Assembly: GCA_047605325.1 (NCBI GenBank)
Contig: JASGFX010000005.1
Coordinates: forward strand, 2,561-66,560
Source of the DNA: Solirubrobacterales bacterium
Lineage (GTDB): Bacteria > Actinomycetota > Thermoleophilia > Solirubrobacterales > JACPNS01
Reading direction: 5' to 3'
Length of the DNA stretch: 64,000 nucleotides
Of the stretch, positions 1,096 to 57,500 are shown in pieces. Under the pieces are notes generated by a model. The model did no database searches. It had not been told where the DNA came from and saw only the letters and a program-made list of their open reading frames with translations. Position 1 is the stretch's first letter. Every line of letters starts with the position of its first letter. Both the position numbers and the translations under genes were made by a program.

Positions 1096-1102
1096 ACGCC
1101 CG

Positions 1103-2473: not shown

Positions 2474-3837
2474 TGAAGGTGCTGAAGCGGACATCGAAGA
2501 TGGCCTCGGCGGCGAATCCCCGCAAGCTCAGCGTGCGCTCGCGCCGCCTGACGGCGCTATGCATTGCCGCAGCGGCCATCGTCGTCGTTGTGCTCTCGCT
2601 CGGCGCCAGCGGCGGCGGTAGCTACAAGGTTCGCGCGATTTTTGTCAACTCCGCCGGCATCACCAACGGCGCCGATGTGCGCGTCGCAGGCGCGAACGTG
2701 GGATCGATCGACGGTATCTACGCCGGCAAGGACGGCCTCGCCTCGGTGATCCTTGACATCAAGGATCCCGGCTACCAGCAGTTCTACGCGGACGCGCACT
2801 GCCGCATCCGCCTGCAGTCGCTGATCGGTGAGAAGTTCGTCGACTGCACGCCCGGTACACCTTCGAAGGGCAACCTCCAGACCGACCCGGCTGACGACAG
2901 CCGCGAGATCTTGCCCCACTCACAGACTGGATCGCCGGTCGACCCGGACGAGCTGCTCGACGCGATGCGCGAGCCGCAGCGCGAGCGCTTCCGGGTGATC
3001 ATCAACGAGCTCGGCATCACGCTGACCGGTCGCGGCCAGGACCTTCAGGACATCCTTGATCGCTTCAACCCGACGCTGATGAACGTCAACAAGATCCTGA
3101 AGATCCTCGCCGACGAGAACAAGAAGCTCGTGCAGATGGCTGAGGATGGCGACGAGTCGCTCGAGCGGCTCGCCCGCGCTCGCAAGAGCATCGTCGGCTT
3201 GATGAAGAACGCCGACATCGCGGCGCGCGCTACCAACCAGAAGCAGGCCGAGCTCGCCGAGACGCTCCAGCGCCTGCCGGAGTTTCTGCGCGAGCTCGAG
3301 CAGACCGCGCCGGTGCTTGAGGAGTTTGCGAATCAGGCTGCACCGGTGGCTGCGTCGGCGCGCGCTGCTTCGGGTGATCTCTCTGACTTTGTCTCGGGAA
3401 CTAAGGCTTTCGTCGACGCGGCGAACCCCGCGCTGACGCGGTTCGGTCAAACCGCCGATGTCTTCCGCGCTCAGATCCCGGCACTTCAGCCGGTGGCGGA
3501 GACGCTGAAGCAGATTGGTGACAACCGGAGCTCGGTTACGAACATCAAAAAGTTGCTTACGAGTTTCGACCAGCAGAACGGTTACCCCAACCTCGCAGCG
3601 ATGGCCATCGGACTTGCCGGAGCCGGAAATGGCACGAATGCGTTCGGGCACTTCATGCGGTCTTCGATGGTCATTCGCCAGCGCGGCTGTCTCTTCACAT
3701 GGCAGCACGTCGGGCGACTGTGCTCGGACTGGACCGCGGGGCGAAAGAACTCCGACCCAAGCAACGGCCGGTTCGATCCACAGGCGACCGGCTACGACCG
3801 CCAGCTCCACGGCGAGCGCCGCCGCTCGACTACCTGA
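2473..3837 (+). CDS. MCE family protein 2 of 6
   Basis: Track ORF 2371-3837 trimmed to the ATG at 2473, which overlaps the upstream stop as TGATG. TM helix, then YKVRAIFVNSAGITNGADVRVAGANVGSIDGI. Confidence 0.8.
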   Translation: MKVLKRTSKMASAANPRKLSVRSRRLTALCIAAAAIVVVVLSLGASGGGSYKVRAIFVNSAGITNGADVRVAGANVGSIDGIYAGKDGLASVILDIKDPGYQQFYADAHCRIRLQSLIGEKFVDCTPGTPSKGNLQTDPADDSREILPHSQTGSPVDPDELLDAMREPQRERFRVIINELGITLTGRGQDLQDILDRFNPTLMNVNKILKILADENKKLVQMAEDGDESLERLARARKSIVGLMKNADIAARATNQKQAELAETLQRLPEFLRELEQTAPVLEEFANQAAPVAASARAASGDLSDFVSGTKAFVDAANPALTRFGQTADVFRAQIPALQPVAETLKQIGDNRSSVTNIKKLLTSFDQQNGYPNLAAMAIGLAGAGNGTNAFGHFMRSSMVIRQRGCLFTWQHVGRLCSDWTAGRKNSDPSNGRFDPQATGYDRQLHGERRRSTT

Positions 3838-3851
3838 TGGGAGGCGAGTAG

Positions 3852-5345
3852 ATGCGCCGTCAGGGAGTCGCTGACAACCCCGTACTCGTCGGTGCCGGCG
3901 CGATTCTCGTGATCCTCGTGATGGTGCTGCTGAGCTATAACGCCAACTCCGGTCTGCCGTTCGTCCCGACCTACGACATCACCGCGGACATCCCGAATGG
4001 TGCGGCACTCGTGAAGGGCAACGAGGTGCGCATCGGTGGCGCGCGCGTTGGAACGGTCACCAGCATCAAGCCTGAGAGCAAGGACGACGTCTACTACGCG
4101 CAGATCGCTCTCAAGCTCGACAAGAACATCGGCCCGATCCCCGAGAACTCAACTGTCGAAGTCCGACCGAAGTCGACGATCGGCCTCAAATACGTCGAGC
4201 TGACGTTGGGTGACTCCGACGACACGATTCCCAACGGCGGAAATCTGCCGATTTCGCAGGCCACCACCGCGACCGAGTTTGAGGACCTTCTCGACACATT
4301 TGACAAGCGCGTCCGCGAGGGCAACAAGCGGTCACTGCAGGAGTTCGGCAATGCATTCGCAGGTCGCGGAGCGGATCTGAACACGGCGTTCGGCGAGCTT
4401 GGTCCGCTGTTCGAGAATCTTGAGCCCGTTGCGAAGACTATTGCCGATCCGGCCACTCGCCTCGGCGAATTCATCCGTGTGATCGCGCAAGTCGCGCATG
4501 ACTACGCGGCCAGCGGCGAGGCGGGGTACGAGGTCTGGGTCAATGCTGACCGGACATTCGCGGCTTTCGCGCAGGCGTCGAACGGAATCCAACAGAGCCT
4601 TGAGGAGTCGCCGGCAACCCTTGCCGTGCTCACCGAGAATTTCCCGGCCGAGCGGAAGTATTTCCGTCAGCTGACCGACACGGTCGAACGATTCCAAGAA
4701 GGCGCACCGTACCTTCCCACGGTGGCCACAGACTTCGCGTCGATCACCGACGACGGGCCGAGCGCCTTTAACAAGCTCTACAAGACGGTTCCGGCGTTCA
4801 ACACGACCCTCACAAATCTCGGCCAGTTCGCCGCGGATTCGCAGGTCAAGTTGGGCCTGAATGCATTGAAAAACTTCGTCGTGACGATCAAGCAGCCGCT
4901 CGAATACATCACGCCGGCGCAGACAAAATGCAACTACTTCGGTCTGTTGGTGCGCAACCTCGCTTCCACGGTGAGTTCGCGTGACAACGGGGTCGGCATG
5001 CTGCGGTTCGGGGCTGTTGCGGGATTCCCGAACATCAATGGCGACACAAGTGCTGAGAGCGGACCGGGCGACAGACTCCCGGCGTCGTCGCAGAACGCCT
5101 ACTATCAGAACGGGAGGCTGATCGGAGATGTTTGGAACTATCTGAACAGCAACGGATACCCCGGTACTGGACAAAACGGGATCTGCGGCGCAGGAAACGA
5201 ATTCACTAAGGGCGTGAACCAAGGCGGCACGATCCCCCAGTCTCTGCCAAAACAAACACGCACCACCGAGCCGGATGGAATCAAGCCCGGCTTCACCACT
5301 CAGAACACTCAGCCCATCGGATCCGACCAGGTTGACACGAAATGA
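3852..5345 (+). CDS. MCE family protein 3 of 6
   Basis: TM helix VLVGAGAILVILVMVLL, then YDITADIPNGAALVKGNEVRIGGARVGTVTSI. Confidence 0.8.
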   Translation: MRRQGVADNPVLVGAGAILVILVMVLLSYNANSGLPFVPTYDITADIPNGAALVKGNEVRIGGARVGTVTSIKPESKDDVYYAQIALKLDKNIGPIPENSTVEVRPKSTIGLKYVELTLGDSDDTIPNGGNLPISQATTATEFEDLLDTFDKRVREGNKRSLQEFGNAFAGRGADLNTAFGELGPLFENLEPVAKTIADPATRLGEFIRVIAQVAHDYAASGEAGYEVWVNADRTFAAFAQASNGIQQSLEESPATLAVLTENFPAERKYFRQLTDTVERFQEGAPYLPTVATDFASITDDGPSAFNKLYKTVPAFNTTLTNLGQFAADSQVKLGLNALKNFVVTIKQPLEYITPAQTKCNYFGLLVRNLASTVSSRDNGVGMLRFGAVAGFPNINGDTSAESGPGDRLPASSQNAYYQNGRLIGDVWNYLNSNGYPGTGQNGICGAGNEFTKGVNQGGTIPQSLPKQTRTTEPDGIKPGFTTQNTQPIGSDQVDTK

Positions 5346-6769
5346 CGCTGCACCACGGACAGCCCGAAGGCGCGTCGCTCCGCAAGGCAGGACTCATCGG
5401 CATCGCTGTGATCGCGGTGCTCGTCTACTTCGCATTCACGAAGTCGATTCCGTTCACGCATGGCTACCAGGTCAACGCCTACTTCACCAACGCCGCAAAC
5501 ATTCAGCCGAAGGCTCAGGTGCGAATCGCCGGGGTAAAGGTAGGCACTGTCTCAAGCGTGCAGCGTGGCAACGGCGCTACGACCAAGGTCGTCATGGAGC
5601 TCGACAAGAAGGCGCTTCCGGTCTACCAGAACGCGGCCGCCAAGATTCGCTTCCGCATCTTTCTTGAAGGAAACCCGTTCATCGACCTCCAGCCAGGCAC
5701 TCCCGGCAGCAAGGAGATCAAATCGGGCGGCTCCATTCCGGTCGCCCAAACCGCTGGCCCGGTGCAGCTTGACCAGGTTCTCAGCGCAGTCAACAGCGAC
5801 TCGCGCAAGGGCCTCGAGTCGATCTTCACGGAGATCGGAACGGCTTTGAACACCAAGGGCACCGAAGAGGAGAACGCCACGCAGGAGGACGACGTCAAGG
5901 ATCTGACCGGCGCGCAGGCTCTCAACCGTGCGTTCCGCTACGGCCCCGACGGCTTCAAGGGCGGCGCGCGGGTGTTCGACGCCCTGATCGGTTACGGCGA
6001 TGACGACCAGCTCACGATCCTTCGCGGCATTCGTGATTTCAACACCGCCGTCAACGACCGCGAGGCGCAGTTGGTTCCGCTGATCGCCGACTTCGGTACC
6101 ACGATTGGCGCGTTCGCCGACGACGAGGAGGCGCTGCGCCAGGCGACCAAGCAGTTCTCGCGTCTTTCCTACGAGTCGTACCCGACGCTCGTGCAGCTCA
6201 ACAAACTTCTTCCGGCCCTCACGACTTGGAGCTACACGATCGCGCCGCAGCTGAAGGAAATCCCGGCGACCGTGCGCGCCGCCTATCCGTGGATCGAGCA
6301 GACGAATGACCTCATGGAGGCGCTCGACGATGGCACCGCCAAGCTCGCTCAGAACACCACGGAGCAGTTCGCGGTCGCGCAGGCTGGAACGAAGAAACTG
6401 CTTCCGCAGCTCGACAACGTTGCGCGCTGCTGGAACCACAACTGGTTCCCGACACTTAACGCCGTCGTGCCCGATGGATCGAACACTTCTGGCAAGGAGA
6501 ACTACAAGGAGTTCTGGTACTCACTGGTCGGCTGGAACAGCTCGACGCAGAACTTCACGTCGACTGGTCCTTACCTCCGACTGGGCTCCGGCTCGGCCGC
6601 GACCGTGACAACGCCGTCCGGCAAACTGTTCGGCCCGTCGGCCAACGCGCAGACTGGCACGAGCCCGAAGATCCTCTCGAGTGCGAACCCGCCGGTTCAG
6701 ACGAAGGTTTCTTGCTACAAAAATGCTGCGCCCAACCTCTCGCCTACCCCTGAGAGCGTGACTCCCTAA
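5342..6769 (+). CDS. MCE family protein 4 of 6
   Basis: 4-nt overlap with the previous gene. TM helix, then YQVNAYFTNAANIQPKAQVRIAGVKVGTVSSV. Confidence 0.8.
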   Translation: MTLHHGQPEGASLRKAGLIGIAVIAVLVYFAFTKSIPFTHGYQVNAYFTNAANIQPKAQVRIAGVKVGTVSSVQRGNGATTKVVMELDKKALPVYQNAAAKIRFRIFLEGNPFIDLQPGTPGSKEIKSGGSIPVAQTAGPVQLDQVLSAVNSDSRKGLESIFTEIGTALNTKGTEEENATQEDDVKDLTGAQALNRAFRYGPDGFKGGARVFDALIGYGDDDQLTILRGIRDFNTAVNDREAQLVPLIADFGTTIGAFADDEEALRQATKQFSRLSYESYPTLVQLNKLLPALTTWSYTIAPQLKEIPATVRAAYPWIEQTNDLMEALDDGTAKLAQNTTEQFAVAQAGTKKLLPQLDNVARCWNHNWFPTLNAVVPDGSNTSGKENYKEFWYSLVGWNSSTQNFTSTGPYLRLGSGSAATVTTPSGKLFGPSANAQTGTSPKILSSANPPVQTKVSCYKNAAPNLSPTPESVTP

Positions 6770-8085
6770 TGCACGGTTTGCGCAAAGCAATGAAGCGCTA
6801 CGGCGTGCACCTCGCGGCGATCGTGGTGCTCGTCGTGGTGTCGCTCGGTGTCGGTAGCTACATCCTCTCGCACCAGCGCCTGTATCTGCCCGCCTGGGTA
6901 CCGGTCATTGGGACCGACTTCTACACCGTGAACGCGCAGTTCACGAGTGCGCAGGCAGTCACGCCCGGTCAGGGGCAGACGGTCAACATCGCCGGAGTTC
7001 CTGTCGGCGAAATCGGCAGCGTCACTCTTGAAAACGGGACAGCCAACGTTCAGTTGAAGATCCGTCGCTCGCACGCGCCGATCTACAAGAACACGACGAT
7101 GCTGCTGCGCCCGAAGACGCCGCTGTCCGACATGTATGTCGACATGAAGCCGGGCGACCCGAGCGCGGGCGAGATCAAGGATGGCGGCACGGTTCCGCTG
7201 GCCAACACCAAGCCGACGGTCAACTTCGATGAGTTTCTCTCGCTCTTCGACGAGGACACTCGCGACTACTTCCAGAACCTCCTCACGGCGGCCGGCGAGG
7301 GCCTCGAGGGTCAGGGCGGAAACCTCCGCAATGGCTTCAAACGCTTCCCGACGACCGGCAAGTACGGCGTGCGCATCGTCAAGGAGCTGCAGAAGCGCCA
7401 CAAGAACATCAAGCGCGCGATCACGAATCTCGCGTTGCTCTCGAAGGCGCTCGGCGACAACTCGAAGGTGTTCGCTTCCCTGATCGACTCATCGAGCACG
7501 ACGTTCCGTACGTGGGCGAGCCAGCAGGAGTCGATCCGTCAGATCGTCCAGCTCGCGCCGGAAGCGTTTGGCAAGACAGCCGACGCAGCCGAGGCATCGA
7601 CGCCGGTCATTGAGGACAGCGCTGTCGCGTTCAAGAACCTTCAGCCGCTTGCCAAGAACCTCGGAGTTTCTTTGAAGAGCCTGCGCCCGTTCTTCAAGGA
7701 CCAGGCGCAGGTCACCAAAGATCACTTCATCCCGCTTGCCGAGGACTCGAAGCCGTTGCTGGAGGTTCTCAGTCCGGCCTCAACGAACCTCGCCAAGATG
7801 ACGCCTGACGCCGTCGCTGCCACCCAGTCTTTCAACCGACTTTTGAACATCGTCGGGTTCAACCCGAAGGGTTCAGAAGAGGGATATCTCTACTGGCTCT
7901 CATGGTTCAGCCATATTTCTGCGTCGAGTTTCAGCCGCGCCGATGCCAACGGCATCCTCTCGTCCGGTGCACTGGTCGCCTCATGCAAGGACTTGGGCAC
8001 TGCCGGCGCTGCGGCGCGAGGTGGAAACATCGTTTTCCCGCTTCTGGTCGGCCTCACAAATCTTCCGATCGACAAGGGCTGCTGA
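6769..8085 (+). CDS. MCE family protein 5 of 6
   Basis: 1-nt overlap with the previous gene. TM helix, then YTVNAQFTSAQAVTPGQGQTVNIAGVPVGEIGSV. Confidence 0.8.
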   Translation: MHGLRKAMKRYGVHLAAIVVLVVVSLGVGSYILSHQRLYLPAWVPVIGTDFYTVNAQFTSAQAVTPGQGQTVNIAGVPVGEIGSVTLENGTANVQLKIRRSHAPIYKNTTMLLRPKTPLSDMYVDMKPGDPSAGEIKDGGTVPLANTKPTVNFDEFLSLFDEDTRDYFQNLLTAAGEGLEGQGGNLRNGFKRFPTTGKYGVRIVKELQKRHKNIKRAITNLALLSKALGDNSKVFASLIDSSSTTFRTWASQQESIRQIVQLAPEAFGKTADAAEASTPVIEDSAVAFKNLQPLAKNLGVSLKSLRPFFKDQAQVTKDHFIPLAEDSKPLLEVLSPASTNLAKMTPDAVAATQSFNRLLNIVGFNPKGSEEGYLYWLSWFSHISASSFSRADANGILSSGALVASCKDLGTAGAAARGGNIVFPLLVGLTNLPIDKGC

Positions 8086-8089
8086 GTCA

Positions 8090-9691
8090 GTGATCAAGCG
8101 AGCACCAAGTCCTGCCCAGCTCATCGCGATGATCGTTTTCGCGTTCTCCTGCTTTGCACTGATCCTGTTCCTATGGGTTTCGTTCGGCGGCCCCGTGCCG
8201 CTGAAGCCCCAGGGATACCGTGTGAACGCGACATTCAACGAGGCGGTGCAGCTTGCCACTGAGGCTGATGTCCGGATCTCTGGCGTGCCGATCGGCAAGG
8301 TCAAGAAGGTCTATCCGGACCAGGGTCGCACCGAAGCAACTCTTGAGATTGAACCTCGCTACGCACCCCTGCCTGATGACGTAAAGGCGATCCTCCGCAG
8401 CAAGACACTTCTGGGCGAGACCTACGTCGAGCTATCCCCGGGAACCAAGGGTGCGCCGACGATTCCCGACCATGGGTCGATCCCAGCTGCCCAGGTCTCG
8501 AATCAGGTCCAGCTGGATGAAGTGATCCGCACGTTCGACCAGCCCACTCGCGAGGCGTTCGGCGACTGGCTTATTGGGCAGTCTGAGGCTGTCAAGGGTC
8601 ACGGAGATCAGCTAAACCAAGCCTTCGGTGTGCTCCCGATGTTCTTCACCGATAGCAACAACCTCATGGAGGTTCTGCACCGCCAGGACAAGGCGCTCTC
8701 GCGCGTCTTCCGCAACACTGCGACGATCTTCAAGGCGATCGACAGCCGGCCGGGCCAGCTGACCGACCTGATCATCGCATCGAACAACCTGCTGCGTGTG
8801 ACTGGTAACCGCAGTCAGCAGCTTGTGCAGACCTTCAACGAATTCCCCGAGTTTTTGCGCCAGACACGCCAGACGATCGCGGAGTTCCAGGATTTCTCGG
8901 ATGGCACTCAGAACCTGATTTCGAACACGAACGCATTTGCGGATGCATCCTCTCCGCTGATCAAGAAGTCCGTAAAAGCGGCTGACGACGCGCGTCAACT
9001 CGTGAGCAGTCTCGAGCCGATGCTCGACAAGGCGGATTCGGGACTGCCGGCTACGGACCAGTTCCTCACTCTCGCAAAGCCGACGTTGGCTCAGTTGGAT
9101 CCGTTTCTCGCGAACCTGAACCCCGTACTCGAATTCGTCGGCATGTACCAAAAGGAACTCACGGCATTTGCGGCTAACGATGCGGCAGCGTCACAGGCGC
9201 AGGCCACTATGTCTTCCACAAGATCGGGGCAAGCCTCTTTTGGGCACTACCTACGTGCGTTCACGATGTTTACCCCAGATTCACTCGCGTACTACCCGAA
9301 CAAGAGTGCGAAGACGCGATCAAACGCTTATCCGGTTCCCGGCTGGTACGACAAGCTCGCTTCCGGCCTCCAAGTATTCGACGCAGGCCAGTGTGGGACG
9401 ATCGCGGTTCCGCCCCTTGATCCGGATGACACGACCTACCTGAACCCACCACCTGGGGCAGTGCAACTCGCGCAAATCTTGCCGCAGATAAACCAGATCA
9501 TCTACGGCGGCAACTACACGCCGAATCCGACCAATCCCGTCGGAACGGCGGTATCCGCGAACCTCTCCCAGAGTCCAACCAATGCCGCAAACCTTCTTGC
9601 CCCCAACTGCTCCCAGCAACAGTCAATGACCTTCCAAGGCTCCTCGCTCCAGTTCCCGCACGTCAACCAGGGCACCAACGCCAATCCTTAG
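8090..9691 (+). CDS. MCE family protein 6 of 6
   Basis: Track ORF 7943-9691 trimmed to the in-frame GTG at 8090, 4 nt after the upstream stop. TM helix LIAMIVFAFSCFALILFLWV, then YRVNATFNEAVQLATEADVRISGVPIGKVKKV. Confidence 0.8.
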   Translation: MIKRAPSPAQLIAMIVFAFSCFALILFLWVSFGGPVPLKPQGYRVNATFNEAVQLATEADVRISGVPIGKVKKVYPDQGRTEATLEIEPRYAPLPDDVKAILRSKTLLGETYVELSPGTKGAPTIPDHGSIPAAQVSNQVQLDEVIRTFDQPTREAFGDWLIGQSEAVKGHGDQLNQAFGVLPMFFTDSNNLMEVLHRQDKALSRVFRNTATIFKAIDSRPGQLTDLIIASNNLLRVTGNRSQQLVQTFNEFPEFLRQTRQTIAEFQDFSDGTQNLISNTNAFADASSPLIKKSVKAADDARQLVSSLEPMLDKADSGLPATDQFLTLAKPTLAQLDPFLANLNPVLEFVGMYQKELTAFAANDAAASQAQATMSSTRSGQASFGHYLRAFTMFTPDSLAYYPNKSAKTRSNAYPVPGWYDKLASGLQVFDAGQCGTIAVPPLDPDDTTYLNPPPGAVQLAQILPQINQIIYGGNYTPNPTNPVGTAVSANLSQSPTNAANLLAPNCSQQQSMTFQGSSLQFPHVNQGTNANP

Positions 9692-9727
9692 GATCCCGGC
9701 TGCTCCACCGGCACCTCCGCAGCCGCA

Positions 9728-12271
9728 GTGAACCTTCCTGACATCTATCGCCGTACGGCCGAGGGCGCAGCGCGCTTCTCCCTGAAGAAGCCGCCGCTGG
9801 TGATCGCGGCCGTCGGTCTACTCGCGTTGATCGCGGCTGTGCTGGCGATCGGACTGAAGGCCGACACCGGGATCGAGTCGATCACCGGCAAGCGCTCCGA
9901 CACCTACAAGGCCTCCCAGGTCTGGGCCAAGAACTTCGGTGGCGACCCGATCATCGTCGTCGCCAAGGGCAGTGTCGCGAAGATGATGCTGAGCACCGAC
10001 GTCGCGTCGATGCTCGGCCTCGAGGGGTGCCTTTCGGGCAAGGGCACTCAGAAGGCGCTCGCCAGCATGCCCGAGATCTGCGGCGAGATCGCCAAGCTGA
10101 AGCCTGCCACCGCAGTCTTCGGTCCCGGCACTTTTGCCAACTCCGCGATCGGGTCGATCACCGACACGATCGAGCGCCTCTCCAAGGAGGCCCGCGTCAA
10201 GGGCAAGCAGGCCGGTGAGGCAGCCGCCGAGATCCAGCGCAAGGCAGGCCACGACAAGGCGGCGCAGGAGACCGCCCGCAAAGCCGCCGACGACGCCACC
10301 CGCGTGACGATGGCGCAGTACATGCTGCAGCTCGGCACGCAGTACAACATCGGCGTTGGCAGTCTGCCCGCGCTGAACAACCCCGAATTCATGGCGCGCC
10401 TCATCTTCGACGCCGTCCACGGCGCCGATACGCCGAAGTCTCGCTGGGCCTACGTCTTCCCGAGCAAGAACGCGGCGATCATCCAGGTCCGACTGCGCCC
10501 GGATCTCTCCACCGAGCAGCGCGCCGAAGCGGTCGACCTGGTGAACCGCGCGATCGCCGAACCGAAGTTCGCGCTGAACAACGGTTCCTACTTTGTCACC
10601 GGCGCTCCGGTGGTGCTCAACGGCGTCGAGGATTCGATCCAGCATGCCATCGTCGTGCTGCTGATCGCCGCATTGATCGTGATGGCGATCGCGCTGCTGA
10701 TCGTCTTCCCGGCCGAGCTTCGCCTGTTGCCGCTGGCCCTTGCGCTGATGGCCGCGGCCGGCACCTACGGCTTGCTCGCGATCACCGGATCGTCGCTGGG
10801 GGTCGGCGCCGTGGCTGTGCTCCCGGTGCTAGTCGGCCTTGCGGTCGACTACGCGATTCAGTTCCACGCCCGCGCAGACACCGCGATGCGAGAAGGCGAC
10901 GATCCACCGACCGCGGTCAAGCAGGCCGCGAGTGGGGGAGGACCCCCGGTGCTTGCCGCGGCGACCGCGACGATCGCCGCGTTGCTTGCCCTGCTGCTCA
11001 GCCCGATCCCGCTGATTCGCGGATTTGGCCTCCTGCTCGTGATCGGCGTCGCGCTCGCGATCGTGATCGTAGTGACGGCCGGCTTCGCGACGATCGGCTG
11101 GGCCGGCGGCGCGGCCAAGCGGGCCGAGCGCCGCGAGCCCGCCGAGACCGTCGCCGGCTGGGTGCGCCTGCGCAAGCTCTTCGCGCGCACGACGCGCAAC
11201 CCGCGCAAGACGGTCCGGATCGCGCTCGCATTCGCGGTGATCGGCTGGGTCTGTGGCCTGCTCTTACCGGTCACCACCGACATCCAGCAGCTCGTACCGT
11301 CAAGCCTTGGCGCCGTGAAGGACGCCAAGGAGTTCCAGAAGCTCACCGGCACCTCCGGCGAGGTCGACGTGCTCGTGCAGTCCAAGGACGTCACCGATCC
11401 CAAGGTCGTCAAGTGGATGGTCAATTTCCAGAAGACTGCGCTCGCGAAGGCCGGTTACAAGGGCGACAACCCGACCTGCGCGAAGTCTTCGCTCTGCCCG
11501 GCGCTCTCGCTGAGCGGCCTGTTCGAGAATCAGGAGCTCACCCAGGCGAACATCCGCCGGCTGCTCGACGAGGTCGGCGATTTCGCGCGCGGCGCGGTCA
11601 CGCCCGACCGCAAGATGGCGACGATCGCCTTCGGCTTGCGCCAGAAGTCCCTGAACGAGCAGAAGAAGTCGGTCGACGATCTGCGCAGCCGCATCAAAAA
11701 GGATCCTCCGCCAGCCGGGACGACCGCCACCGTCGTCGGCATCTCGGCGCAGGCAGCTGACGCCAGCGGCGCGCTGAGCAACCCGCTGCGCCGCCTGCTG
11801 ATCGCGCTGGTCGCCCTGGGCTTGCTGTTTCTGGTGGTACGCGGGGTCTCTGGCGCGTGGCGCACTGCCGCGGCCCCGGTGGTCTCGGTTGCGGCGGCCG
11901 CCGGCATTTCGGCGCTGCTGCTCTTCATCATCCGGGTCGACCTCAACCCGATGTCGGCGGCGCTCGGCGTGTTCATCATCGCGATCGCCGGAGAATTCAC
12001 TCTGCTGATCCACATGCAGTACCTGCGTGAGCGCGCGCGCGACGATTCGCTCGAGGTGATCGACGCCTTCAAGCGCTCCTATCGCACGATCGGGCCCGCC
12101 GTCTTTGCCTCCGGGGTCACAGCGATCGCCGGATTCGCGGCGCTCGCAGTGAGCGACATCAGCATGCTTCGTGGCTTCGCGCTGGTCGCCGTGATCGACC
12201 TGACGGTGGCGCTGGCGAGCACGGTGCTGCTCCTGCCCGCGATCACGGCCTGGCTCGAAGAGCGGAAATGA
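9728..12271 (+). CDS. MMPL family (RND superfamily) membrane transporter
   Basis: 847 aa. Two blocks of multiple TM helices, each preceded by a large extracytoplasmic loop. Typical MMPL layout and length. Confidence 0.8.
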   Translation: MNLPDIYRRTAEGAARFSLKKPPLVIAAVGLLALIAAVLAIGLKADTGIESITGKRSDTYKASQVWAKNFGGDPIIVVAKGSVAKMMLSTDVASMLGLEGCLSGKGTQKALASMPEICGEIAKLKPATAVFGPGTFANSAIGSITDTIERLSKEARVKGKQAGEAAAEIQRKAGHDKAAQETARKAADDATRVTMAQYMLQLGTQYNIGVGSLPALNNPEFMARLIFDAVHGADTPKSRWAYVFPSKNAAIIQVRLRPDLSTEQRAEAVDLVNRAIAEPKFALNNGSYFVTGAPVVLNGVEDSIQHAIVVLLIAALIVMAIALLIVFPAELRLLPLALALMAAAGTYGLLAITGSSLGVGAVAVLPVLVGLAVDYAIQFHARADTAMREGDDPPTAVKQAASGGGPPVLAAATATIAALLALLLSPIPLIRGFGLLLVIGVALAIVIVVTAGFATIGWAGGAAKRAERREPAETVAGWVRLRKLFARTTRNPRKTVRIALAFAVIGWVCGLLLPVTTDIQQLVPSSLGAVKDAKEFQKLTGTSGEVDVLVQSKDVTDPKVVKWMVNFQKTALAKAGYKGDNPTCAKSSLCPALSLSGLFENQELTQANIRRLLDEVGDFARGAVTPDRKMATIAFGLRQKSLNEQKKSVDDLRSRIKKDPPPAGTTATVVGISAQAADASGALSNPLRRLLIALVALGLLFLVVRGVSGAWRTAAAPVVSVAAAAGISALLLFIIRVDLNPMSAALGVFIIAIAGEFTLLIHMQYLRERARDDSLEVIDAFKRSYRTIGPAVFASGVTAIAGFAALAVSDISMLRGFALVAVIDLTVALASTVLLLPAITAWLEERK

Positions 12272-14444: not shown

Positions 14445-14828
14445 CTAAGCCGCGACGCGATAGACGACGCTGGCAGCGAGGTCGGGGGCGGGGCGGCCGG
14501 CAGTCAGGACGGCGGCCATCGCGGAGCGCTGACGCTCGGTCAGCGACTTGATGGTCTTACTCTCGTGCAGGCCGATCGAATCCATGAATTTGGCACAACG
14601 AGTGGAACCCCAGCGCTTCTGGCTGGTCAGGAGGTCGGCGATTTCCATGCCGCCGATCTCGTCGGTGGGGTCGAGCAGGACGTCGGCCACTGCGACGTCA
14701 CCCTTTGCGATCCGGCGCTTGAGCTCTGCGCGAGCGAGGCGGATGCGGTTGGCCTGTTCAAGAGCGCGCATGTTCTGGCGTCCTGTCGGTGCGGTCTTGG
14801 CGGCGATTTCTGGGTTTGAGTTGATCAC
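14445..14828 (-). CDS. mihF: Actinobacterial integration host factor (mIHF)-like DNA-binding protein
   Basis: Pattern ALEQANRIRLARAELKRRI...GGMEIADLLTSQKRWGSTRCAKFMDSIGLHESKTIKSLTERQR resembles the mIHF layout. The start may be the internal Met at 14771. Confidence 0.55.
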   Translation of the reverse strand: MINSNPEIAAKTAPTGRQNMRALEQANRIRLARAELKRRIAKGDVAVADVLLDPTDEIGGMEIADLLTSQKRWGSTRCAKFMDSIGLHESKTIKSLTERQRSAMAAVLTAGRPAPDLAASVVYRVAA

Positions 14829-15162
14829 TGTTTTCGTACCTCCCGTGTACGAGGTTCTTGACTGGTCACACGCTTCACAGCAGTTGCTTCACACGGCGCA
14901 GGAAAGCCACCATCGTCCGAGGGCGCACACGACCGTCCGGCTCCCCGCCGGCTTTGATCAAGCGTCTCGATGAAGGTCCCCTTGGCAGATCCGAGAGACC
15001 GTGTCAGCGAGGTGAACCATACGACGGAATGTTTCAGATTTGTGACGCGGCTGTTTTTAAATCCCGCTCAGAGCGAACATTTTCGTCACCGAAAAGATTG
15101 TGAAATCTTGGACAAAGTGATTCCGTCCGATGGGGTCGCATTCCGCACAAATGTGGAGAGGA

Positions 15163-15180
15163 AGTGACTATTGAGTCACT
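15163..15180. repeat. Perfect inverted repeat AGTGACT-ATTG-AGTCACT (candidate operator)
   Basis: Read directly from the sequence. Lies in the AT-rich region upstream of the mIHF-like gene. Confidence 0.35.
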
Positions 15181-15226
15181 ATTTGGCTGAGTGGCCAGTT
15201 TTCTCGCCCGGGTGGGGTAGATGGGT

Positions 15227-15521
15227 TTGACTGCCGTCGTGGACGGTCGGTTTCGCGCTGGTGCTCGTGGAGGTTGGGCCGCTTCGCGGCCGGCGGCGAC
15301 GGGAGTGATCCGTGGCCTGGCGGGGGCGCGCCGGAGTGGATTCCGCATAGGTAAGGGGTTTTTTCTCCACACCCTCTCCCAACGGGAGAGACCATGGAAG
15401 ATTTCCCGCATAGATGCGCCAGTCACCCGCGCCGCGGACCCAACTATCGCCGCCGGCGGCGAAGCCGCCTGCACTCTCAACCACCTACAGCAATCAACCT
15501 GCCGCGCACGACGGCAGTCAA
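15227..15521. repeat. Full-length copy of the structured intergenic repeat family (MITE-like, about 295 bp, long imperfect palindrome)
   Basis: Terminal inverted repeats TTGACTGCCGTCGTG / CACGACGGCAGTCAA. Internal GGCCGCTTCGCGGCC and GCGGCGAAGCCGCC hairpins. Central CTCTCCC-AAC-GGGAGAG hairpin. Related to 34130-34290, 39516-39823 and 47737-47959. Confidence 0.8.
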
Positions 15522-15528
15522 CGGCCAG

Positions 15529-16830
15529 CTACTCGCCAGAATCCCGCATCATGGCCGGATGCTTCGCGGCCACAGCCAGGATCCGCTCAATCGCCTGGTC
15601 AAGATGCTCACGCTGGTGCGTCGCCATCACCGAAGTACGCAGCAGGGCGCTCCCGTGCGGCACGGCCGGGTGCATTGCGACGTTGCAGTACACACCTGCG
15701 TCGTAGAGCTCCTTCCAGACCAGACCGGCTTCCCAATCCTCGCCGACGACGATCGGCACGACCGGGGTGAATGGCTTGATGTCGTAACGCTCGGCCATCT
15801 CGGTGCCCGGATCGACGACGCGCAGGCCGGCATCAGAGAGCTGGGTCCAGAGGTACTCGGCGTTGCCGAGCAGTTTCTCCATCAACGCCTTGCCCTCGTC
15901 GGTCTTGGCGATCTTGACCGCTGCCAGCGCGGCTCCGACGGCCGCCGGCACGGCCGAGGCAGTGAACAGGAATGAGCGCGCATAGAGACGCAGGTAGTCG
16001 ACGATGTCGGCGTCGGCGGCGATGAACCCGCCGCAGCTCGCCAGCGACTTCGAGAACGTGCCCATGCGCAGATCGACCTGGTCCTCTATGCCGAGCAGCT
16101 CACTTGCGCCTGCGCCGCGCTGGCCGAGCACGCCCACGCCGTGGGCCTCGTCGACCATCAGCCGCGCCCCGTATGTGCGCACGAGTTCGGCGATCTTCGG
16201 CAGATCGGCGATGTCGCCTTCCATCGAGTAGACACCGTCGACCACCACAAGCACCCCGCCGCCGTCAGAGCGCGCGCGATCGAGCATCGTTTCGAGTTTG
16301 TCGAGACGGCCGTGCCTGAAGGGGCGCACCTTGGCGCCGGAAAGCTGGATGCCGTCGAGCAGCGAGGCGTGGTCTCCGGAGTCGCAGATCACCGTGTCGC
16401 CGGGCTGGAGCAGCGCCGAGAGGCAGCCGACGTTCGCCTGATAGCCCGTGGTGAAGACGATCGCGTCGCCGGTTCCGTACCAATCGGCGATCTCGCGTTC
16501 GAGTTCGGTGTGGATGTCGATCGTGCCGTTGAGCAGCCGCGAGCCGGTCAGCGCGGTGCCGTACTTCTCGAGCGCGTCGCGTGCACCCTGGATCACCCGC
16601 TCGTCGCCGGTCAGCCCGAGGTAGTTGTTCGAGCCGAGCATCACCCGCTCCATGCCCTCCATGCGCACGACCGGCCCGGCCGGACCCTCGAGCAGGCGGA
16701 AGAACGGCAGCATGTCGTGTTCACGAGCTGCGGCGATGATTTCGGCGCGCTCGTGTTTGCGGGCGCGCTCGAACAGGTCGACCGCGGGCCCCGAAGGCTC
16801 TGTAATCACTTTTGTAGTGTCCACGGCCAT
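15529..16830 (-). CDS. PLP-dependent alpha-oxoamine synthase (8-amino-7-oxononanoate synthase / serine palmitoyltransferase family)
   Basis: 433 aa. LGSNNYLGL, TGYQANVG, DEAHGVG, and GTFSKSL with the PLP lysine. Confidence 0.85.
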   Translation of the reverse strand: MAVDTTKVITEPSGPAVDLFERARKHERAEIIAAAREHDMLPFFRLLEGPAGPVVRMEGMERVMLGSNNYLGLTGDERVIQGARDALEKYGTALTGSRLLNGTIDIHTELEREIADWYGTGDAIVFTTGYQANVGCLSALLQPGDTVICDSGDHASLLDGIQLSGAKVRPFRHGRLDKLETMLDRARSDGGGVLVVVDGVYSMEGDIADLPKIAELVRTYGARLMVDEAHGVGVLGQRGAGASELLGIEDQVDLRMGTFSKSLASCGGFIAADADIVDYLRLYARSFLFTASAVPAAVGAALAAVKIAKTDEGKALMEKLLGNAEYLWTQLSDAGLRVVDPGTEMAERYDIKPFTPVVPIVVGEDWEAGLVWKELYDAGVYCNVAMHPAVPHGSALLRTSVMATHQREHLDQAIERILAVAAKHPAMMRDSGE

Positions 16831-21245: not shown

Positions 21246-21279
21246 GGTACGACTGCCCGCAGCTTACACAGCCGCTCAA

Positions 21280-21589
21280 TTGCATGCCTCGGCCATGCAA
21301 CGCGCTCGCGGTGATTTTCGAGGCTTGGGAATGGGGTTTTGATTGCATGGCCGAGCCATGCAAAAGATCCCCCTTGTTCAAGGGCTTCCGCGGCGCAGGC
21401 AAACCTTGCATGGCCGAGCCATGCAAACTGCGGCGCGGTGCCTTGCAGCGCTTTGCGTTGCAAGGTTGGCCGGCCTCGATTTGCCGCTTGAACATCGGGT
21501 CTTCTTTGCAACACAAAGCGCTGCAAGGAAAACCGCTTGTCCACGCGGCTCGATCTCGTGGAATCTGCTTGCAACGCAAAGCGTTGCAA
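21280..21589. repeat. Array of six regularly spaced 21-bp palindromes (two subtypes), mostly with 42-bp unique spacers
   Basis: Type A TTGCATGGC-CGA-GCCATGCAA at 21280 (one mismatch), 21343 and 21406. Type B TTGCAACGC-AAA-GCGTTGCAA at 21443, 21506 and 21569. Start spacing 63, 63, 37, 63, 63 bp. Confidence 0.85.
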
Positions 21590-21635
21590 GACGCGGTCGC
21601 GGCGGCGGGCTTTCGGCGGCGCGGTGATCCGGCCC

Positions 21636-27250: not shown

Positions 27251-28399
27251 CTACTTCAGGTAGCTCTTGAATTTGTCGCGGGTGTCGCAGAAGACTTGCT
27301 GCTTGGACACCTTGCAGAGCGTGTCGAGGAAGTCGATCGTGAGCAGGTGGTAATTCATGTCGGTCTTCTCGCCGTTCAGCGAGTAGAGCGACCACGAGCC
27401 GGTGTCGAACTCCGGGGTCTCCTGGATCGCAGCGGCGAGGCCCTTGCGATAGACGGAGCGCATGTGCGCGTCGTCGGCCAGCACGTAGTAGGTGCGGATT
27501 CCGATCAGCGACTGCAGGAACATGTTCAGGATGATCAGTTTCGGGCGCCCGGAGTAGCCGAGGAAGTGGTATCCGCCGTCGCGCCTCACGCGCACGCCGC
27601 GTGGGGGAGGCTGCGAGAACGATCGTCCGGCTCGCTTGGCGGCGCGCATGATCGAGCGGTTGTGCATGCGGTAGGCGACGCGCGCCAGCGACTGCATCGC
27701 GGTGCCCTGCGAGATCGCGCTGATCCATGGCGCGGCGCTGCCCTGGAAGTTGAAGTAGTACTCCCACGTGAGCGCGCCGTTGCGGTTGACGCCCCAGTGG
27801 ATCAGTTCGCGGGCGAACGAGCGCTGCGCGCGCCGCGATGGCGGGGTGTCGACGGTCCAGATCGCGTTGAGCTTGGCGAAGTTCGAGAGCGGATGGAACT
27901 GCCAACCGATCCCGGCGAAGTACTGGAAGATGATCCGGCTGTTGCCGAAGCGGCGGTCGGTCGCGACTGCCGCCGGGCCGTTGTGGCGAAACCAGCGGGT
28001 GTTGTTGCTGAGTGTCGTGAACAGCGGCGCCATGCGGTCGCCGGAGATCCGGTGGTCGCGCGCCATCGCCGAGACGATCTTGATCTGCGCCTTCATCGGG
28101 CCGCGACGCACCTTGTACTTCGCGCGCTTAGCGCGCGCCGCGTCGGACTTGCCGCGGATCGGCTTGTTCAGCTTGTTCGAAAGCTGGCGCGCCTTCATAT
28201 AGGTGCGCAGCGCCCAGCGCGCCCGGCTCTTGCTGATCTCGTGACGCTTCTGGAGCGCGTTCAGAGAGCGCTCGACCGGGCCGGCGGCGCCGGCAGTTGG
28301 CGCAGAAACCCCGAGCGCTGTGATCAGAGCGGCGCTGACGGTGATGACCGGCAGCAGCCGACGGATGCGCGGATGCATGGAGGTGTGGCGAAACATCAA
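27251..28399 (-). CDS. Secreted D-glucuronyl C5-epimerase C-terminal-domain-like protein (paralog 1)
   Basis: Signal peptide. WISAISQGTAMQSLARVAYR, LNMFLQSLIGIRTYY and TGSWSLYSL...NYHLL resemble the epimerase alpha/alpha-barrel motifs. The family call is from memory. Confidence 0.5.
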   Translation of the reverse strand: MMFRHTSMHPRIRRLLPVITVSAALITALGVSAPTAGAAGPVERSLNALQKRHEISKSRARWALRTYMKARQLSNKLNKPIRGKSDAARAKRAKYKVRRGPMKAQIKIVSAMARDHRISGDRMAPLFTTLSNNTRWFRHNGPAAVATDRRFGNSRIIFQYFAGIGWQFHPLSNFAKLNAIWTVDTPPSRRAQRSFARELIHWGVNRNGALTWEYYFNFQGSAAPWISAISQGTAMQSLARVAYRMHNRSIMRAAKRAGRSFSQPPPRGVRVRRDGGYHFLGYSGRPKLIILNMFLQSLIGIRTYYVLADDAHMRSVYRKGLAAAIQETPEFDTGSWSLYSLNGEKTDMNYHLLTIDFLDTLCKVSKQQVFCDTRDKFKSYLK

Positions 28400-34066: not shown

Positions 34067-34104
34067 CCAGACCCTCGCCCTTTCGGGCGGGGGTCTGGTT
34101 GTTT
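34067..34104 (+). terminator. Intrinsic terminator
   Basis: CCAGACCCTCGCCC-TTTC-GGGCGGGGGTCTGG followed by TTGTTT, 25 nt after the stop codon. Confidence 0.7.
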
Positions 34105-34129
34105 AAGGGGTTGCAGAGGGGTCCCGCAT

Positions 34130-34290
34130 GAACAAGGGGCAAATCTTCCATCGGGCGACCCGTCAGGGACGCCCGATGGAAGATTCACCGCTAGAAACCG
34201 ACCCACTCGCTTCACCACTCATCGCCGGCCGCGAAGCGGCCCGCACTCGACCGCCTCGAGCAACAACCCACCACCCACGACGGCAGTCGA
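34130..34290. repeat. Half-copy (single module) of the structured intergenic repeat family
   Basis: Central hairpin AATCTTCCATCGGGCG...CGCCCGATGGAAGATT, GGCCGCGAAGCGGCC hairpin, CA-rich tract, terminal CACGACGGCAGTCGA. Confidence 0.7.
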
Positions 34291-34326
34291 CAGCCGGCAA
34301 ACCCCCAGTCAAATACCCTCGCTCGC

Positions 34327-36709: not shown

Positions 36710-36736
36710 TCCTCTCGTAGACAAGCCAGTTCCCTG

Positions 36737-36775
36737 CCAAACCTCCGCCCGATCGGGCGGAGGTTTGGCATTTAA
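36737..36775 (+). terminator. Intrinsic terminator
   Basis: CCAAACCTCCGCCC-GATC-GGGCGGAGGTTTGG followed by CATTTA. Confidence 0.65.
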
Positions 36776-36795
36776 AGGGCCTACTCTTCGGCCCC

Positions 36796-39511: not shown

Positions 39512-39515
39512 GGAG

Positions 39516-39823
39516 TTGACTGCCGTCTTGGGCGACCGGTTTCGGGTTGCTGTTGGTTGAGTGCGGGCGGCTTCGCCGCCAGCTATGAGGTGAGTGGATG
39601 GAGCCGTGGCAAGCCCCGAATCTTCCATGGTCTCTCCCGGCGGGAGAGACCATGGAGTAAAAGCCCAGTGTTCAAGCGGGATCCTGCTTCAACTCTGCGC
39701 GCGAAACGCAGAGTTGAAGGAAAGGACGGCTCAACCCAGCCGGACAACCTTCATCGCCGGCCGCGAAGCGGCCCACACTCAACTAGCTCGATCAATCAAA
39801 CCGCCGCCCAAGACGGCAGTCAA
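39516..39823. repeat. Full-length copy of the structured intergenic repeat family (308 bp, long imperfect palindrome)
   Basis: 19-bp TIRs TTGACTGCCGTCTTGGGCG / CGCCCAAGACGGCAGTCAA. The arms are roughly 75% identical as reverse complements (by eye). Central hairpin CCATGGTCTCTCCC-GGCG-GGGAGAGACCATGG and a second hairpin TTCAACTCTGCG-CGCGAAA-CGCAGAGTTGAA. Fills the gap between convergent genes. Confidence 0.85.
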
Positions 39824-39835
39824 CCACTCAAGCGG

Positions 39836-47736: not shown

Positions 47737-47959
47737 GGCGGATTCAAGCCTCAAATCCTCCATGGTCTCTCCCGGAAGGGGAGACCATGGATCAAACACC
47801 CCTTGAACAAGCCAGATCCGCCTCCAACTCTGCGCGAAAAGCGCAAAGTTGGAGAGAAGATCGCCCGCAGAGAGCACCGCTGATCCTTCGTCGCAGGCGG
47901 CGAAGCCGCCCCAGCTCGACCACCTCCAGCCCAAACAAACCTCGCACGACGCCAGTCAA
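47737..47959. repeat. Half-copy (single module) of the structured intergenic repeat family
   Basis: CCATGGTCTCTCCC-GGAA-GGGGAGACCATGG, TCCAACTCTGCGCGAAAAGCGCAAAGTTGGA, GGCGGCGAAGCCGCC, CA-rich tract, terminal CACGACGCCAGTCAA. Confidence 0.75.
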
Positions 47960-48020
47960 CAACCAAACCAACCAGCGCCCCAAGGGAGGAAACCAGCCAC
48001 CCTCAAGGAAGGACACCCCG

Positions 48021-50903: not shown

Positions 50904-50907
<4 letters not shown>
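49705..50907 (+). CDS. S41 C-terminal processing peptidase with a PDZ domain
   Basis: PDZ-like segment GSPASDASLKKGDVITKVND. LDLRGNPGG, and GSASASEI with the catalytic Ser. Confidence 0.85.
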
Positions 50908-52804
<1,897 letters not shown>

Positions 52805-52805
<1 letters not shown>

Positions 52806-53290
52806 TGGCCAAGGGCAAGAAAAAGAAGGTCGACCCCGGCGACATCGCTACCAATCGCGAAGCACGCTTTCGCTATGAGCTCTCCGATCCGGTCGAAGCT
52901 GGGATCATGCTCGTCGGCAGCGAGGTCAAGTCGCTGCGCGAGGGCGGGGTACAGATGAAAGACGCCTACGCCGACGTCAAGGACGGCGAGGTCTGGCTGC
53001 GCAATCTCCACATCGCGCCGTACAAGTTCGCCGGCAACGAGAACCACGAGCCCGAGCGGCCGCGCAAGCTGCTGCTCCACCGCCGCGAGATCGACCGCAT
53101 CGTCGGCAAGCTCGCCGAGCGCGGTTACTCGTTGATTCCGACGCGTGTGTACTTCGCCAACGGCCGCGCAAAGGTCGAACTCGCTCTCGGTCGCGGCAAG
53201 GACGTCGGCGACAAGCGCCAAGCGATCAAAGAACGCGAGATGAAGCGAGAGATGGACCGCGCCGGGGCAGACTTCCGGCGCGGCCGCTGA
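52805..53290 (+). CDS. smpB: SsrA-binding protein
   Basis: IATNREARFRYEL, GSEVKSLR, LLLHRREI. TGATG overlap with rnr. Confidence 0.9.
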
Positions 53291-57470: not shown

Positions 57471-57500
57471 TTTGGAGTGACGGATCGCCGTCGGATTTCG

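Follow-up and report, generated by a model that had tools for sequence, protein, structure and literature searches.

The 64,000-nt window analysed here, a stretch of contig JASGFX010000005.1 from a Solirubrobacterales bacterium (W below; the window is the part of the source genome that was examined), carries six modules of a repeat at four intergenic sites, arranged as two full palindromes (copies A and B) and two half copies (copies C and D) that span 165-310 bp. Genes were called by codon-position GC content and Pfam, and all of the copies sit between housekeeping genes that have no common function. Copy A lies between the 3' end of an aminotransferase gene and the region upstream of a small H2TH_5 gene, which are both on the minus strand and are not convergent, and its right end is 7 nt from the aminotransferase stop codon (15529-15531, minus strand). 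The left end of copy B is 4 nt past a stop codon at 39509-39511 and its other end is 12 nt from a stop codon at 39836-39838. Copy C is flanked by an acyl-CoA dehydrogenase gene and a DSBA gene, lies 36 nt upstream of the DSBA start, and is preceded by a terminator-like hairpin at 34067-34098, and copy D follows directly after the FabI stop codon (47732-47734) and ends 52 nt before the start of an FtsE-like ABC gene. The orientation of the arms described below bears no consistent relation to the neighbouring genes. From the evidence that follows, we regard the family, at about an even chance, as an old mosaic DNA repeat, non-autonomous and low in copy number, of the repetitive extragenic palindrome (REP), bacterial interspersed mosaic element (BIME) or MITE (miniature transposable element with inverted repeats) type that is recognised by a trans-acting protein.

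The six half-elements were aligned in one orientation into a profile for an nhmmer search, which matched exactly those six modules in the 64 kb (E = 7e-34 to 2e-42); no seventh module was found in the window by this profile, the extra matches being palindromic centres on the opposite strand only. A repeat search returned an inverted pair within copy B (I1, 81 nt, 75% complementarity) that corresponds to its arms, an inverted pair inside copy A (I8), and direct families D5, D8, D12, and D20 that join the copies, among which D5 shows copies B and D to be alike across the centre, second hairpin, and arm (115 nt at 77%). An earlier sequence-only reading of the window had described four copies with this anatomy as imperfect palindromes, with arms about 75% complementary in copy B, and the sequence, I1, and the profile bear it out; it had also placed copy ends 5-8 nt from stop codons, and the copies do abut gene ends, at measured distances of 7 nt (15529-15531) and 4 nt (39509-39511). 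The copies and their parts are as follows.

15226..15522, no strand assigned: copy A, a full palindrome of left arm, decayed central hairpin, and right arm (sequence, I8, D12, profile).
15226..15303, minus strand: copy A left arm core, with terminal TTGACTGCCGTC at 15227-15238 and GGCCGC-TTC-GCGGCC at 15277-15291 as read on the plus strand (E = 1.4e-15).
15365..15398, no strand assigned: copy A central hairpin, partly decayed, core CTCTCCC-AAC-GGGAGAG, with CCGCATAGGTAAGGGG and a T-run to its left (D20).
15443..15522, plus strand: copy A right arm core, with GGCGGC-GAA-GCCGCC at 15455-15469 and terminal GACGGCAGTCAA at 15510-15521 (E = 2.4e-17).
34127..34291, plus strand: copy C, a half element with a CATGAACAAGGGG motif at 34127-34139, a central hairpin at 34142-34185 (19 pairs), and a right arm core.
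34215-34291, plus strand: copy C right arm core, with its mini-hairpin at 34227-34241.
39515..39824, no strand assigned: copy B, a full palindrome between convergent SIR2 (plus strand) and SLT/M23 (minus strand) genes (I1, profile).
39515..39592, minus strand: copy B left arm core, with the terminal motif at 39516-39527 and GGCGGC-TTC-GCCGCC at 39566-39580.
39624..39656, no strand assigned: copy B central hairpin, TCCATGGTCTCTCCC-GGC-GGGAGAGACCATGGA, 15/15 pairs.
39685..39721, plus strand: copy B optional second hairpin, TTCAACTCTGCG / CGCAGAGTTGAA.
39747..39824, plus strand: copy B right arm core, with its mini-hairpin at 39759-39773 and the terminal motif at 39812-39823.
47737..47960, plus strand: copy D, a half element with a central hairpin at 47759-47791, a CCCCTTGAACAAGCC motif, a second hairpin at 47822-47854, and a right arm.
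47884-47960, plus strand: copy D right arm core, with its mini-hairpin at 47896-47910 and terminal GACGCCAGTCAA at 47948-47959.

Each module is a mosaic of a hairpin unit and an arm. Arm length is 78-80 nt in 18 of 18 examples, and the parts of the arm follow a set order of TC(A/G)YCGCC, a 6-bp stem with a GAA loop (which holds GCGAAGC), a tract of 37-40 nt rich in C and A, and, at the end, the 13-mer GACGGCAGTCAAC. The tract varies in sequence at a constant length, often holds CCTCC, and has a C content of 0.34-0.48 and a G content of 0.14-0.30, against 0.32 and 0.33 in the whole window. Within the window the 13-mer (at one mismatch or fewer) is confined to the six arm ends and GGCSGC-GAA-GCSGCC is found once in each arm, six in all; GCCGTC is also contained in the arms, not as a stem tag. 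In a full copy the left arm, centre, and right arm follow one another with the terminal motifs facing outward, and a half copy consists of the centre and one arm. The terminal inverted repeats TTGACTGCCGTC / GACGGCAGTCAA bound copies A and B on either side, and the same holds for four full copies in relatives.

The hairpin unit comprises a CAAGSSS-type motif (fuller forms CATGAACAAGGGG and CGTAGACAAGSSS), approximately 7 A/T-rich nucleotides, and a GC-rich stem of 13-19 bp. REP palindromes have a conserved GTAG (or CGTC) tag at one end; in some of the central units CGTAGACAAG or CATAGGCAAG lies approximately 15 nt off the stem, not next to it. A second hairpin between centre and arm is present in copies B and D only; that of copy B is homologous to 47822-47854 in copy D, with a compensatory change of T-A to C-G as read by eye. 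The profile searches returned no solo arms, each arm being joined to a hairpin unit. Hairpin units without arms do occur: the window has them at 21270-21600 and 36735-36770, relatives have them at the 3' ends of genes, and the motif lies within 25 nt of the hairpin in 14 of 45 strong hairpins in approximately 300 kb. The central hairpin, which the sequence-only reading had counted as part of the module, is present in it, and its own family, one of REP-like hairpins, is distinct from the arms and is also found without them.

Several further observations concern these hairpins, some of them in stretches of DNA from other genomes that were compared with the window and are labelled L001-L033. The stretch 21270-21600 holds six REP-like hairpins, three of a TTGCATGSC...GSCATGCAA type and three of a CTTGCARCGC..GCGYTGCAAG type (CTTGCAACGCAAAGCGTTGCAAG), with interleaved CCSCTTGWWCA(AGGG) motifs; its layout of motif plus hairpin is that of the element centres, and the same layout flanks the copies (L004, L005, and L010) of mag.17g, a genome introduced below. 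At 36717-36780, CGTAGACAAGCC comes before the hairpin TGCCAAACCTCCGCCCGATCGGGCGGAGGTTTGGCA, a near-identical form of which is found at sites B and C of the metagenome-assembled genome (MAG) CAZRAA01 (L029), and variants of it (GCCATACC... and GCCAATCC...) occur at site A in CAZRAA01 (L033) and at site C in L030, the sites being named after the window copies. It looks like a separate repeat family common to several genomes. On the decayed side of one mag.17g element (L010, 2955-3080), a unit of approximately 62 nt that ends in CACGACGRCAGCCAAACC is tandemly duplicated, and iterated GGGTTGAC-like motifs lie outside the terminal repeat in L004, L005, and L010.

The distribution of the family was surveyed with a pattern scan (terminal motif plus mini-hairpin) over 185,579 species, each represented by a single genome, an exact-pattern method that catches approximately 80% of known arms. 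The scan returned 18 stretches, with real copies in only two MAGs, both of them Thermoleophilia, namely Thermoleophilaceae MAG CAYVWQ01 (GCA_964455545.1; Y below) and Solirubrobacterales MAG JBIQMF01 (mag.17g; M below). The real stretches are L001, L002, L003, and L014 in Y and L004, L005, and L010 in M. About five sites are occupied in Y (the four pattern stretches and one more recognised by synteny), four of which lie on one 144-kb contig, L001 being on another Y contig than these clustered sites; M has at least three sites. The profile recovered 18 arms at E <= 1e-12 in the three genomes, and its next-best hits are chance matches (E >= 4e-5). Pattern matches in Caulobacter, Pseudomonas, Azospirillum, Halalkalicoccus, and others (L006-L009, L011-L013, L015-L019) were rejected as chance, as they lie in coding sequence at E >= 4e-5. 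A scan of metagenomes gave a single, spurious match in a coding region, a scan of viral contigs gave 0 matches, and blastn with copy B found nothing among plasmids and one chance 37-nt match among phages. At the gathering threshold, Rfam matched only the transfer-messenger RNA (tmRNA) in the whole window; at E <= 5-10, copies A and B matched only unrelated microRNA and viral models (best E 0.2-7). A literature search with the terminal motif found unrelated papers only and no description of the repeat. We conclude that this is an unnamed, non-coding repeat family, so far found in a small group of Solirubrobacterales genomes, which is low in copy number and regionally clustered in Y.

The FabI, SIR2, and aminotransferase homologues were used to obtain the syntenic DNA of nine further relatives, in which the four window sites compare as listed here.

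Site A: full copy in W; right arm, centre, and decayed left arm in Y (L002).
Site A, other relatives: hairpin unit only in L031, hairpin with a T-run in L033, and a stop codon within TGACTCGGCAGTCACC in L032.
Site B: full copy in W; centre and right arm only in Y (L028); REP-like hairpins of their own types only in L025, L029, and L030.
Site C: half copy in W; unoccupied in Y; conserved terminator hairpin only in L029 and L030.
Site D: centre and right arm in W; left arm, a different centre, and a decayed right arm in Y (L003).
Site D, other relatives: centre and the remnant CACGACCGCAGTCACC in L030; nothing in L020-22, L023, L025, and L026.

Sites A, B, and D, occupied in W and in CAYVWQ01, are armless among L020-L033, an insertion polymorphism that may reflect gains or losses. 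The armless relatives are as close to W in protein identity as Y is, or closer: FabI identity to W is 95% for L020 and 93% for L030 versus 91% for Y, and SIR2 identity is 86-89% for L025, L029, and L030 versus 83% for Y. Any direction of change at a site would rest on such protein identities rather than on a resolved phylogeny. In L032 (9407-9425) the aminotransferase stop codon lies inside TGACTCGGCAGTCACC, a short palindrome that resembles two fused element termini and could be a deletion footprint or an ancestral target.

The divergence between W and Y is large, four-fold degenerate sites being 0.51-0.59 identical, which amounts to saturation, and the mini-hairpin and terminal block are nevertheless essentially invariant across six W arms and seven Y arms. 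The combination of saturated synonymous sites with invariant arm blocks implies that the signature blocks are held by something other than neutrality. At individual sites, the right arms of copy B in the two genomes (W_B_R and Y_B_R) are each other's best match, with 84% identity, and W_A_L and the decayed Y_A_L have a common signature, CGCGAA(A)CCGACC, beside orthologous flanks (CTACCCCACCCGGG in W, CTACACCACCCGGG in Y). Mean arm identity is 0.73 within W, 0.71 between W and Y, and 0.71 within Y, with M forming a group apart. Judged from these sequence comparisons, the family is older than the split between W and Y and shows no recent burst of copying. Some arms have decayed (Y A_L, Y D_R, and the right side of L010) and others are missing (W C_L, W D_L, and Y B_L).

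Left and right arms fall into distinct subtypes: W_A_L and W_B_L have CGAAACCG in common, W_A_R, W_B_R, and Y_B_R have CAATCAAC in common, and in mag.17g L004_L and L005_L are 86% identical and L004_R and L010_L are 81% identical. Since these subtypes are common across sites, whole left-centre-right units seem to have been copied. The centres behave differently. Site D and site x of Y have arms that are 85% identical and centres that differ, and the centre type of W site C is that of L030 site D; as centre type does not track arm subtype, centres turn over or are exchanged independently of the arms.

Structural conservation is limited to small parts of the element. In the arms, the 6-bp GAA stem is the only supported structure, with one position changed from C-G to G-C in 4 of 18 arms, no pair broken, and the other pairs invariant, although a set of 18 arms limits the power of covariation statistics. 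A terminal hairpin (GCCG...CGGC) was rejected as a conserved structure, being paired in just 78% of cells. Except in copy A, the central stems have 0-1 mismatches in 13-19 bp, whereas the arms of the same elements are 71-88% complementary, a difference which implies that pairing in the central hairpin is kept up through changes of sequence. Of the mismatches between arms, 37 are G·T, 37 are A·C, and 131 are of other kinds; without a wobble bias there is no sign of selection on arm-to-arm pairing in RNA, and the giant hairpin of left and right arms as a selected RNA was dropped. Copy B folded as RNA reaches -189 kcal/mol (z = -14) and copy A folded as DNA has z = -4.9, and the strong fold of a full copy simply reflects its inverted duplication.

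Signals of transcription and translation were sparse. A U-tract after the hairpins is absent, the 5' flank being T-rich and the 3' flank A-rich on both strands, and a terminator scan gave weak partial matches in the copies; canonical hairpin-plus-T-run terminators exist in these genomes at 57439-57473, 34067-34098, and L033 9991-10035. A promoter scan found none in or beside the elements, and by eye there is an inward TTGACT without a -10 partner. Open reading frames (ORFs) that cross the copies (e.g., 15221..15706) show no conservation, and indels of 1-2 nt distinguish the arms; the masking or annotation of these elements would avoid spurious ORF calls such as 15221..15706. Some other identities were tried and dropped. 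The ends GTTGACT ... AGTCAAC are in the reverse order of the integron attC consensus RYYYAAC ... GTTRRRY, with a non-matching third purine, and the neighbours are syntenic housekeeping genes; an inverton, a DNA uptake sequence, and a LexA box were dropped on reading the sequence; and neighbouring genes as trans-acting factors were dropped because all are housekeeping genes, the gene with a LexA box beside L001 being imuB-dnaE2. That box, an actinobacterial LexA-box-like palindrome (CGAACATATGTTCG) at L001 2585-2605, lies just outside the right arm and upstream of imuB-like (IMS family) and dnaE2-like genes, and appears to be part of a normal SOS mutagenesis cassette that has nothing to do with the repeat.

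Under the reading that we favour, that of an old mosaic DNA repeat recognised in trans, the invariant blocks (the GCGAAGC mini-hairpin and the terminal GACGGCAGTCAAC), which stand at a constant spacing of 37-40 nt, are probably recognition sites of a sequence-specific protein, for which a transposase, a recombinase, or a domesticated descendant of one would be candidates. Such a protein would have copied whole left-centre-right units into new intergenic sites without target duplications, and intact arms would be held near the consensus by this protein or by selection associated with it, with arms decaying or being deleted where the relationship was lost. The GCGAAGC tip together with the lack of target duplications leads us to infer single-strand recognition, as in IS200/IS605 and REP-associated tyrosine transposase (RAYT) systems. 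With ends 3-12 nt beyond stop codons, the copies probably form part of transcribed 3' untranslated regions (UTRs), where the centre and paired arms would fold into a long stem that could hinder 3' exonucleases or form an RNase III substrate, as with REP and Correia elements. The family itself, its architecture and distribution, the constraint on it, and its lack of coding capacity rest on direct observation, whereas mobilisation, the protein, and any effect at the RNA level are inferred. The sequence-only reading had likewise proposed a MITE-like or REP-like element outside any named family, and several of its points agree with the present results: the family is intergenic and non-coding, with terminal inverted repeats, no Rfam match, and no conserved ORF; further copies, which it had proposed to look for, were found in the related genomes Y and M, and presence or absence differs among relatives; and there is no sign that the copies are fragments of a known insertion sequence (IS) or Rfam family, no Rfam match and no IS or transposase gene in or beside them having been found. 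The likeness to MITEs and REPs holds for the terminal inverted repeats, small size, non-coding nature, and polymorphism, and fails for the target duplications, which were not seen, and for the number of sites, which in Y is about five rather than hundreds; no transposase partner was found in the window or beside the copies.

Several observations weigh against this reading. In six full copies, the longest abutting direct repeat is 0-3 nt even with a shift of 4 nt allowed, so no target-site duplication was detected. Inspection of genes and Pfam domains across the window and around 11 copies turned up no IS, transposase, or autonomous partner, and there is no Y1 transposase in the window. A gene flanked by arms was not seen in Y or M either, where no arm pair lies more than 1 kb apart (exact-pattern matches within one stretch span at most about 200 nt). 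Copy number is low and clustered (about five sites in Y, four of them on 144 kb), overall mean arm identity is 68% with a maximum of 86%, which leaves no young copies and no sign of current activity, and three of the four W sites are occupied in Y too, with at least two arms (B_R and A_L) that look orthologous. Per-locus conservation over saturated divergence is expected of a host-selected element and not of passive junk.

In the main rival explanation the arms are a host-selected cis element, their mini-hairpin and 13-mer being sites for a host protein or a functional RNA or single-stranded DNA (ssDNA) signal at particular operon boundaries of one region, where purifying selection at every locus would retain them, and any likeness to mobile DNA reflects a distant origin only. 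We consider this doubtful but a real possibility: it would account for blocks that are invariant despite saturated synonymous sites, for occupied sites common to W and Y (including the 84% reciprocal match at B_R and the A_L signature, according to which site A predates the split), for few, regionally clustered copies with no young ones, and for arms of a constant 78-80 nt around a variable tract. It accords poorly with at least five relatives that are as close or closer by protein identity (L020, L025, L029-L033) and that are armless at these sites and appear to manage without, with decay or loss at single sites in both Y (A_L, D_R, no B_L) and W (no C_L, no D_L), and with arms whose orientation relative to genes is inconsistent and whose neighbours have no common function. 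A structured RNA of the 3' UTR, whether a bidirectional terminator that would block read-through from one gene into the next (as the sequence-only reading had also suggested), a site of processing or stability that would shield the 3' ends of mRNA, or a Rho loading site in the outward-facing C-rich, G-poor arm, is improbable in our estimation. Seven element ends (W A_R, B_L, and B_R; Y A_R, B_R, D_L, and y_L) do follow a stop codon at a distance of 3-12 nt, the full copy folds strongly (-189 kcal/mol, z = -14), the central stems stay paired through sequence change, and with regard to Rho the arm tract is C-rich and half copies C and D have their C-rich strand on the sense strand of the upstream gene. 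Termination is disfavoured by hairpins that lack U-tracts in genomes where genuine hairpin-plus-T-run terminators occur, and a selected RNA structure by a single covarying arm pair, by arm mismatches with no wobble excess (37 G·T vs 37 A·C), and by the lack of an Rfam match; a terminator or rut role would also leave the invariant 13-mer and loop sequence unexplained.

Fold-back synthesis (template switching) around existing terminator hairpins could also generate inverted duplications, in which case the half copy would be the primary unit, spread by local duplication or gene conversion with no transposition. The attachment of each arm to a hairpin unit with no solo arm, the lone hairpin units of relatives at the same sites, the clustering of copies within tens of kilobases, and the lack of target duplications would all follow, but left and right arm subtypes conserved across sites and genomes are a better fit to the copying of whole units, and unlinked arms (L001 on the other contig, and those of mag.17g) would still require a mechanism of dispersal, which makes this origin quite improbable. 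We regard as very improbable that each module is an independent small-RNA gene, for instance one whose C/A-rich tract offers a CCUCC seed against Shine-Dalgarno regions. A 5' hairpin, a stable internal hairpin, and an unstructured C-rich tract that often holds CCTCC would suit such a gene; the modules have no promoter-like site, no terminator at their end, no Rfam match, and no conserved tract sequence, and they overlap head to head in full copies.

Compared with known systems, the family is related to both MITEs and REPINs and is a member of neither, since it lacks the target duplication of a formal MITE and departs from REPINs in size, spacing, and copy number. It resembles the REP, BIME, and REPIN sequences of Proteobacteria (PMC3333891, PMC3116915, 10.1101/2021.07.10.451892) in being extragenic and mostly just downstream of genes, in the inverted pairing of palindromic units, in its mosaics of hairpins and motifs, in genome-specific hairpin sequences at conserved sites, in the absence of target duplications, and in long vertical persistence followed by decay; REPIN-RAYT systems are vertically inherited, duplicate slowly, and decay after loss of the RAYT (10.1101/2021.07.10.451892). 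It differs in that the inverted units are 78-80 nt long and 130-250 nt apart, whereas REPs are about 25 nt long and a few tens of nucleotides apart, in having about five sites in Y versus more than 100 copies, and in its presence in Actinomycetota with no RAYT seen in the window or the neighbourhoods of copies. A survey of GTAG/CGTC REPs lists none for Actinomycetota (PMC3733652). Correia/NEMIS elements of Neisseria and enterobacterial repetitive intergenic consensus (ERIC) sequences are, like the present family, small, non-coding, and intergenic, with terminal inverted repeats, long hairpins if transcribed, and variable presence; here, in contrast, there is no target-site duplication and no known parental IS, two conserved subterminal blocks are present rather than terminal repeats only, and the copies are older and more diverged (mean 68%). 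The closest conceptual match to arms around a REP-like centre is the group of RAYT-associated families with long terminal inverted repeats, which are moderately abundant, unrelated in sequence to REP hairpins, and coexist with REP-like hairpins (Di Nocera et al. 2013, PMC3733652), although their repeats flank a RAYT gene and those described here flank only a hairpin.

The mini-hairpin itself has a precedent in d(GCGAAGC), an extraordinarily stable ssDNA mini-hairpin that is used in single-strand recognition signals (PMC13037366). As in the phage G4 origin and ssiA, the 6-bp GC stem of each arm is tipped by an exact GCGAAGC, and the palindromic layout places one hairpin on each strand; unlike in those signals, it is embedded here in a longer stem with no evidence of a role in priming or replication, and its complement GCTTCGC is common in the GC-rich window. 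A more specific form of protein recognition, which we hold to be rather unlikely, is that the arms make up a domesticated recognition system of few, vertically inherited sites, with one GCGAAGC mini-hairpin per strand and a 13-nt tag that would be read on ssDNA at operon boundaries by a lineage-specific protein (a domesticated HUH or transposase-like enzyme, a primase, or a restart factor), with selection maintaining intact sites and with decay of sites where the protein was lost. If so, Actinomycetota would have a REPIN-RAYT-like 'resident replicator' or an ssDNA signalling system whose architecture is new. Palindromic repeats between genes (REP, BIME, REPIN, and MITE) are well studied in Proteobacteria and hardly in Thermoleophilia, and the present family combines hairpin sequence turnover at a fixed site, long arms with invariant blocks, and a very low, clustered copy number. 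This combination offers a tractable case for examining what keeps such elements alive, be it selfish copying, gene conversion, or host function, and a gene whose presence tracks the arms among close relatives would be a route to the protein responsible.

The remainder of the window contains several features apart from the repeat. At 52-12271 there are six or seven genes of Mce/MlaD type with an MMPL transporter gene after them, an arrangement that is also found in L031-L033. The tmRNA gene lies at 59714-60070 on the plus strand (Rfam RF00023, 161 bits), and upstream of it are ftsE/ftsX, an S41 peptidase gene, an RNase R-like gene (50904-52805), and smpB (52805-53290), identified by synteny with annotated relatives. 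Two pairs of direct repeats, both of 273-280 nt and 75% identity, lie in adjacent paralogues, one (27680-27952 / 29063-29335) in two C5-epimerase-like genes and the other (55465-55744 / 57792-58071) in two large minus-strand genes (55174-57171 and 57501-59564), the latter of which has no Pfam match. Some 390 nt of non-coding sequence (14829-15215, minus strand) that lie upstream of the H2TH_5 gene (14445-14828) show strong conservation across five genomes with saturated synonymous sites; the stretch has a mean column identity of 76%, an AGTGACT-N4-AGTCACT palindrome, no Rfam match, and long invariant blocks that include TCGCTCTGAGCGGG, GTCACAAAT, AACATTCCGTCGTA, CGCTGACACGGTCTCTCGGA, and CTGCTGTGAAGCGTGTGACC. 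This stretch, for which five sequences are uninformative as to covariation, is a candidate structured leader, non-coding RNA, or complex regulatory region.

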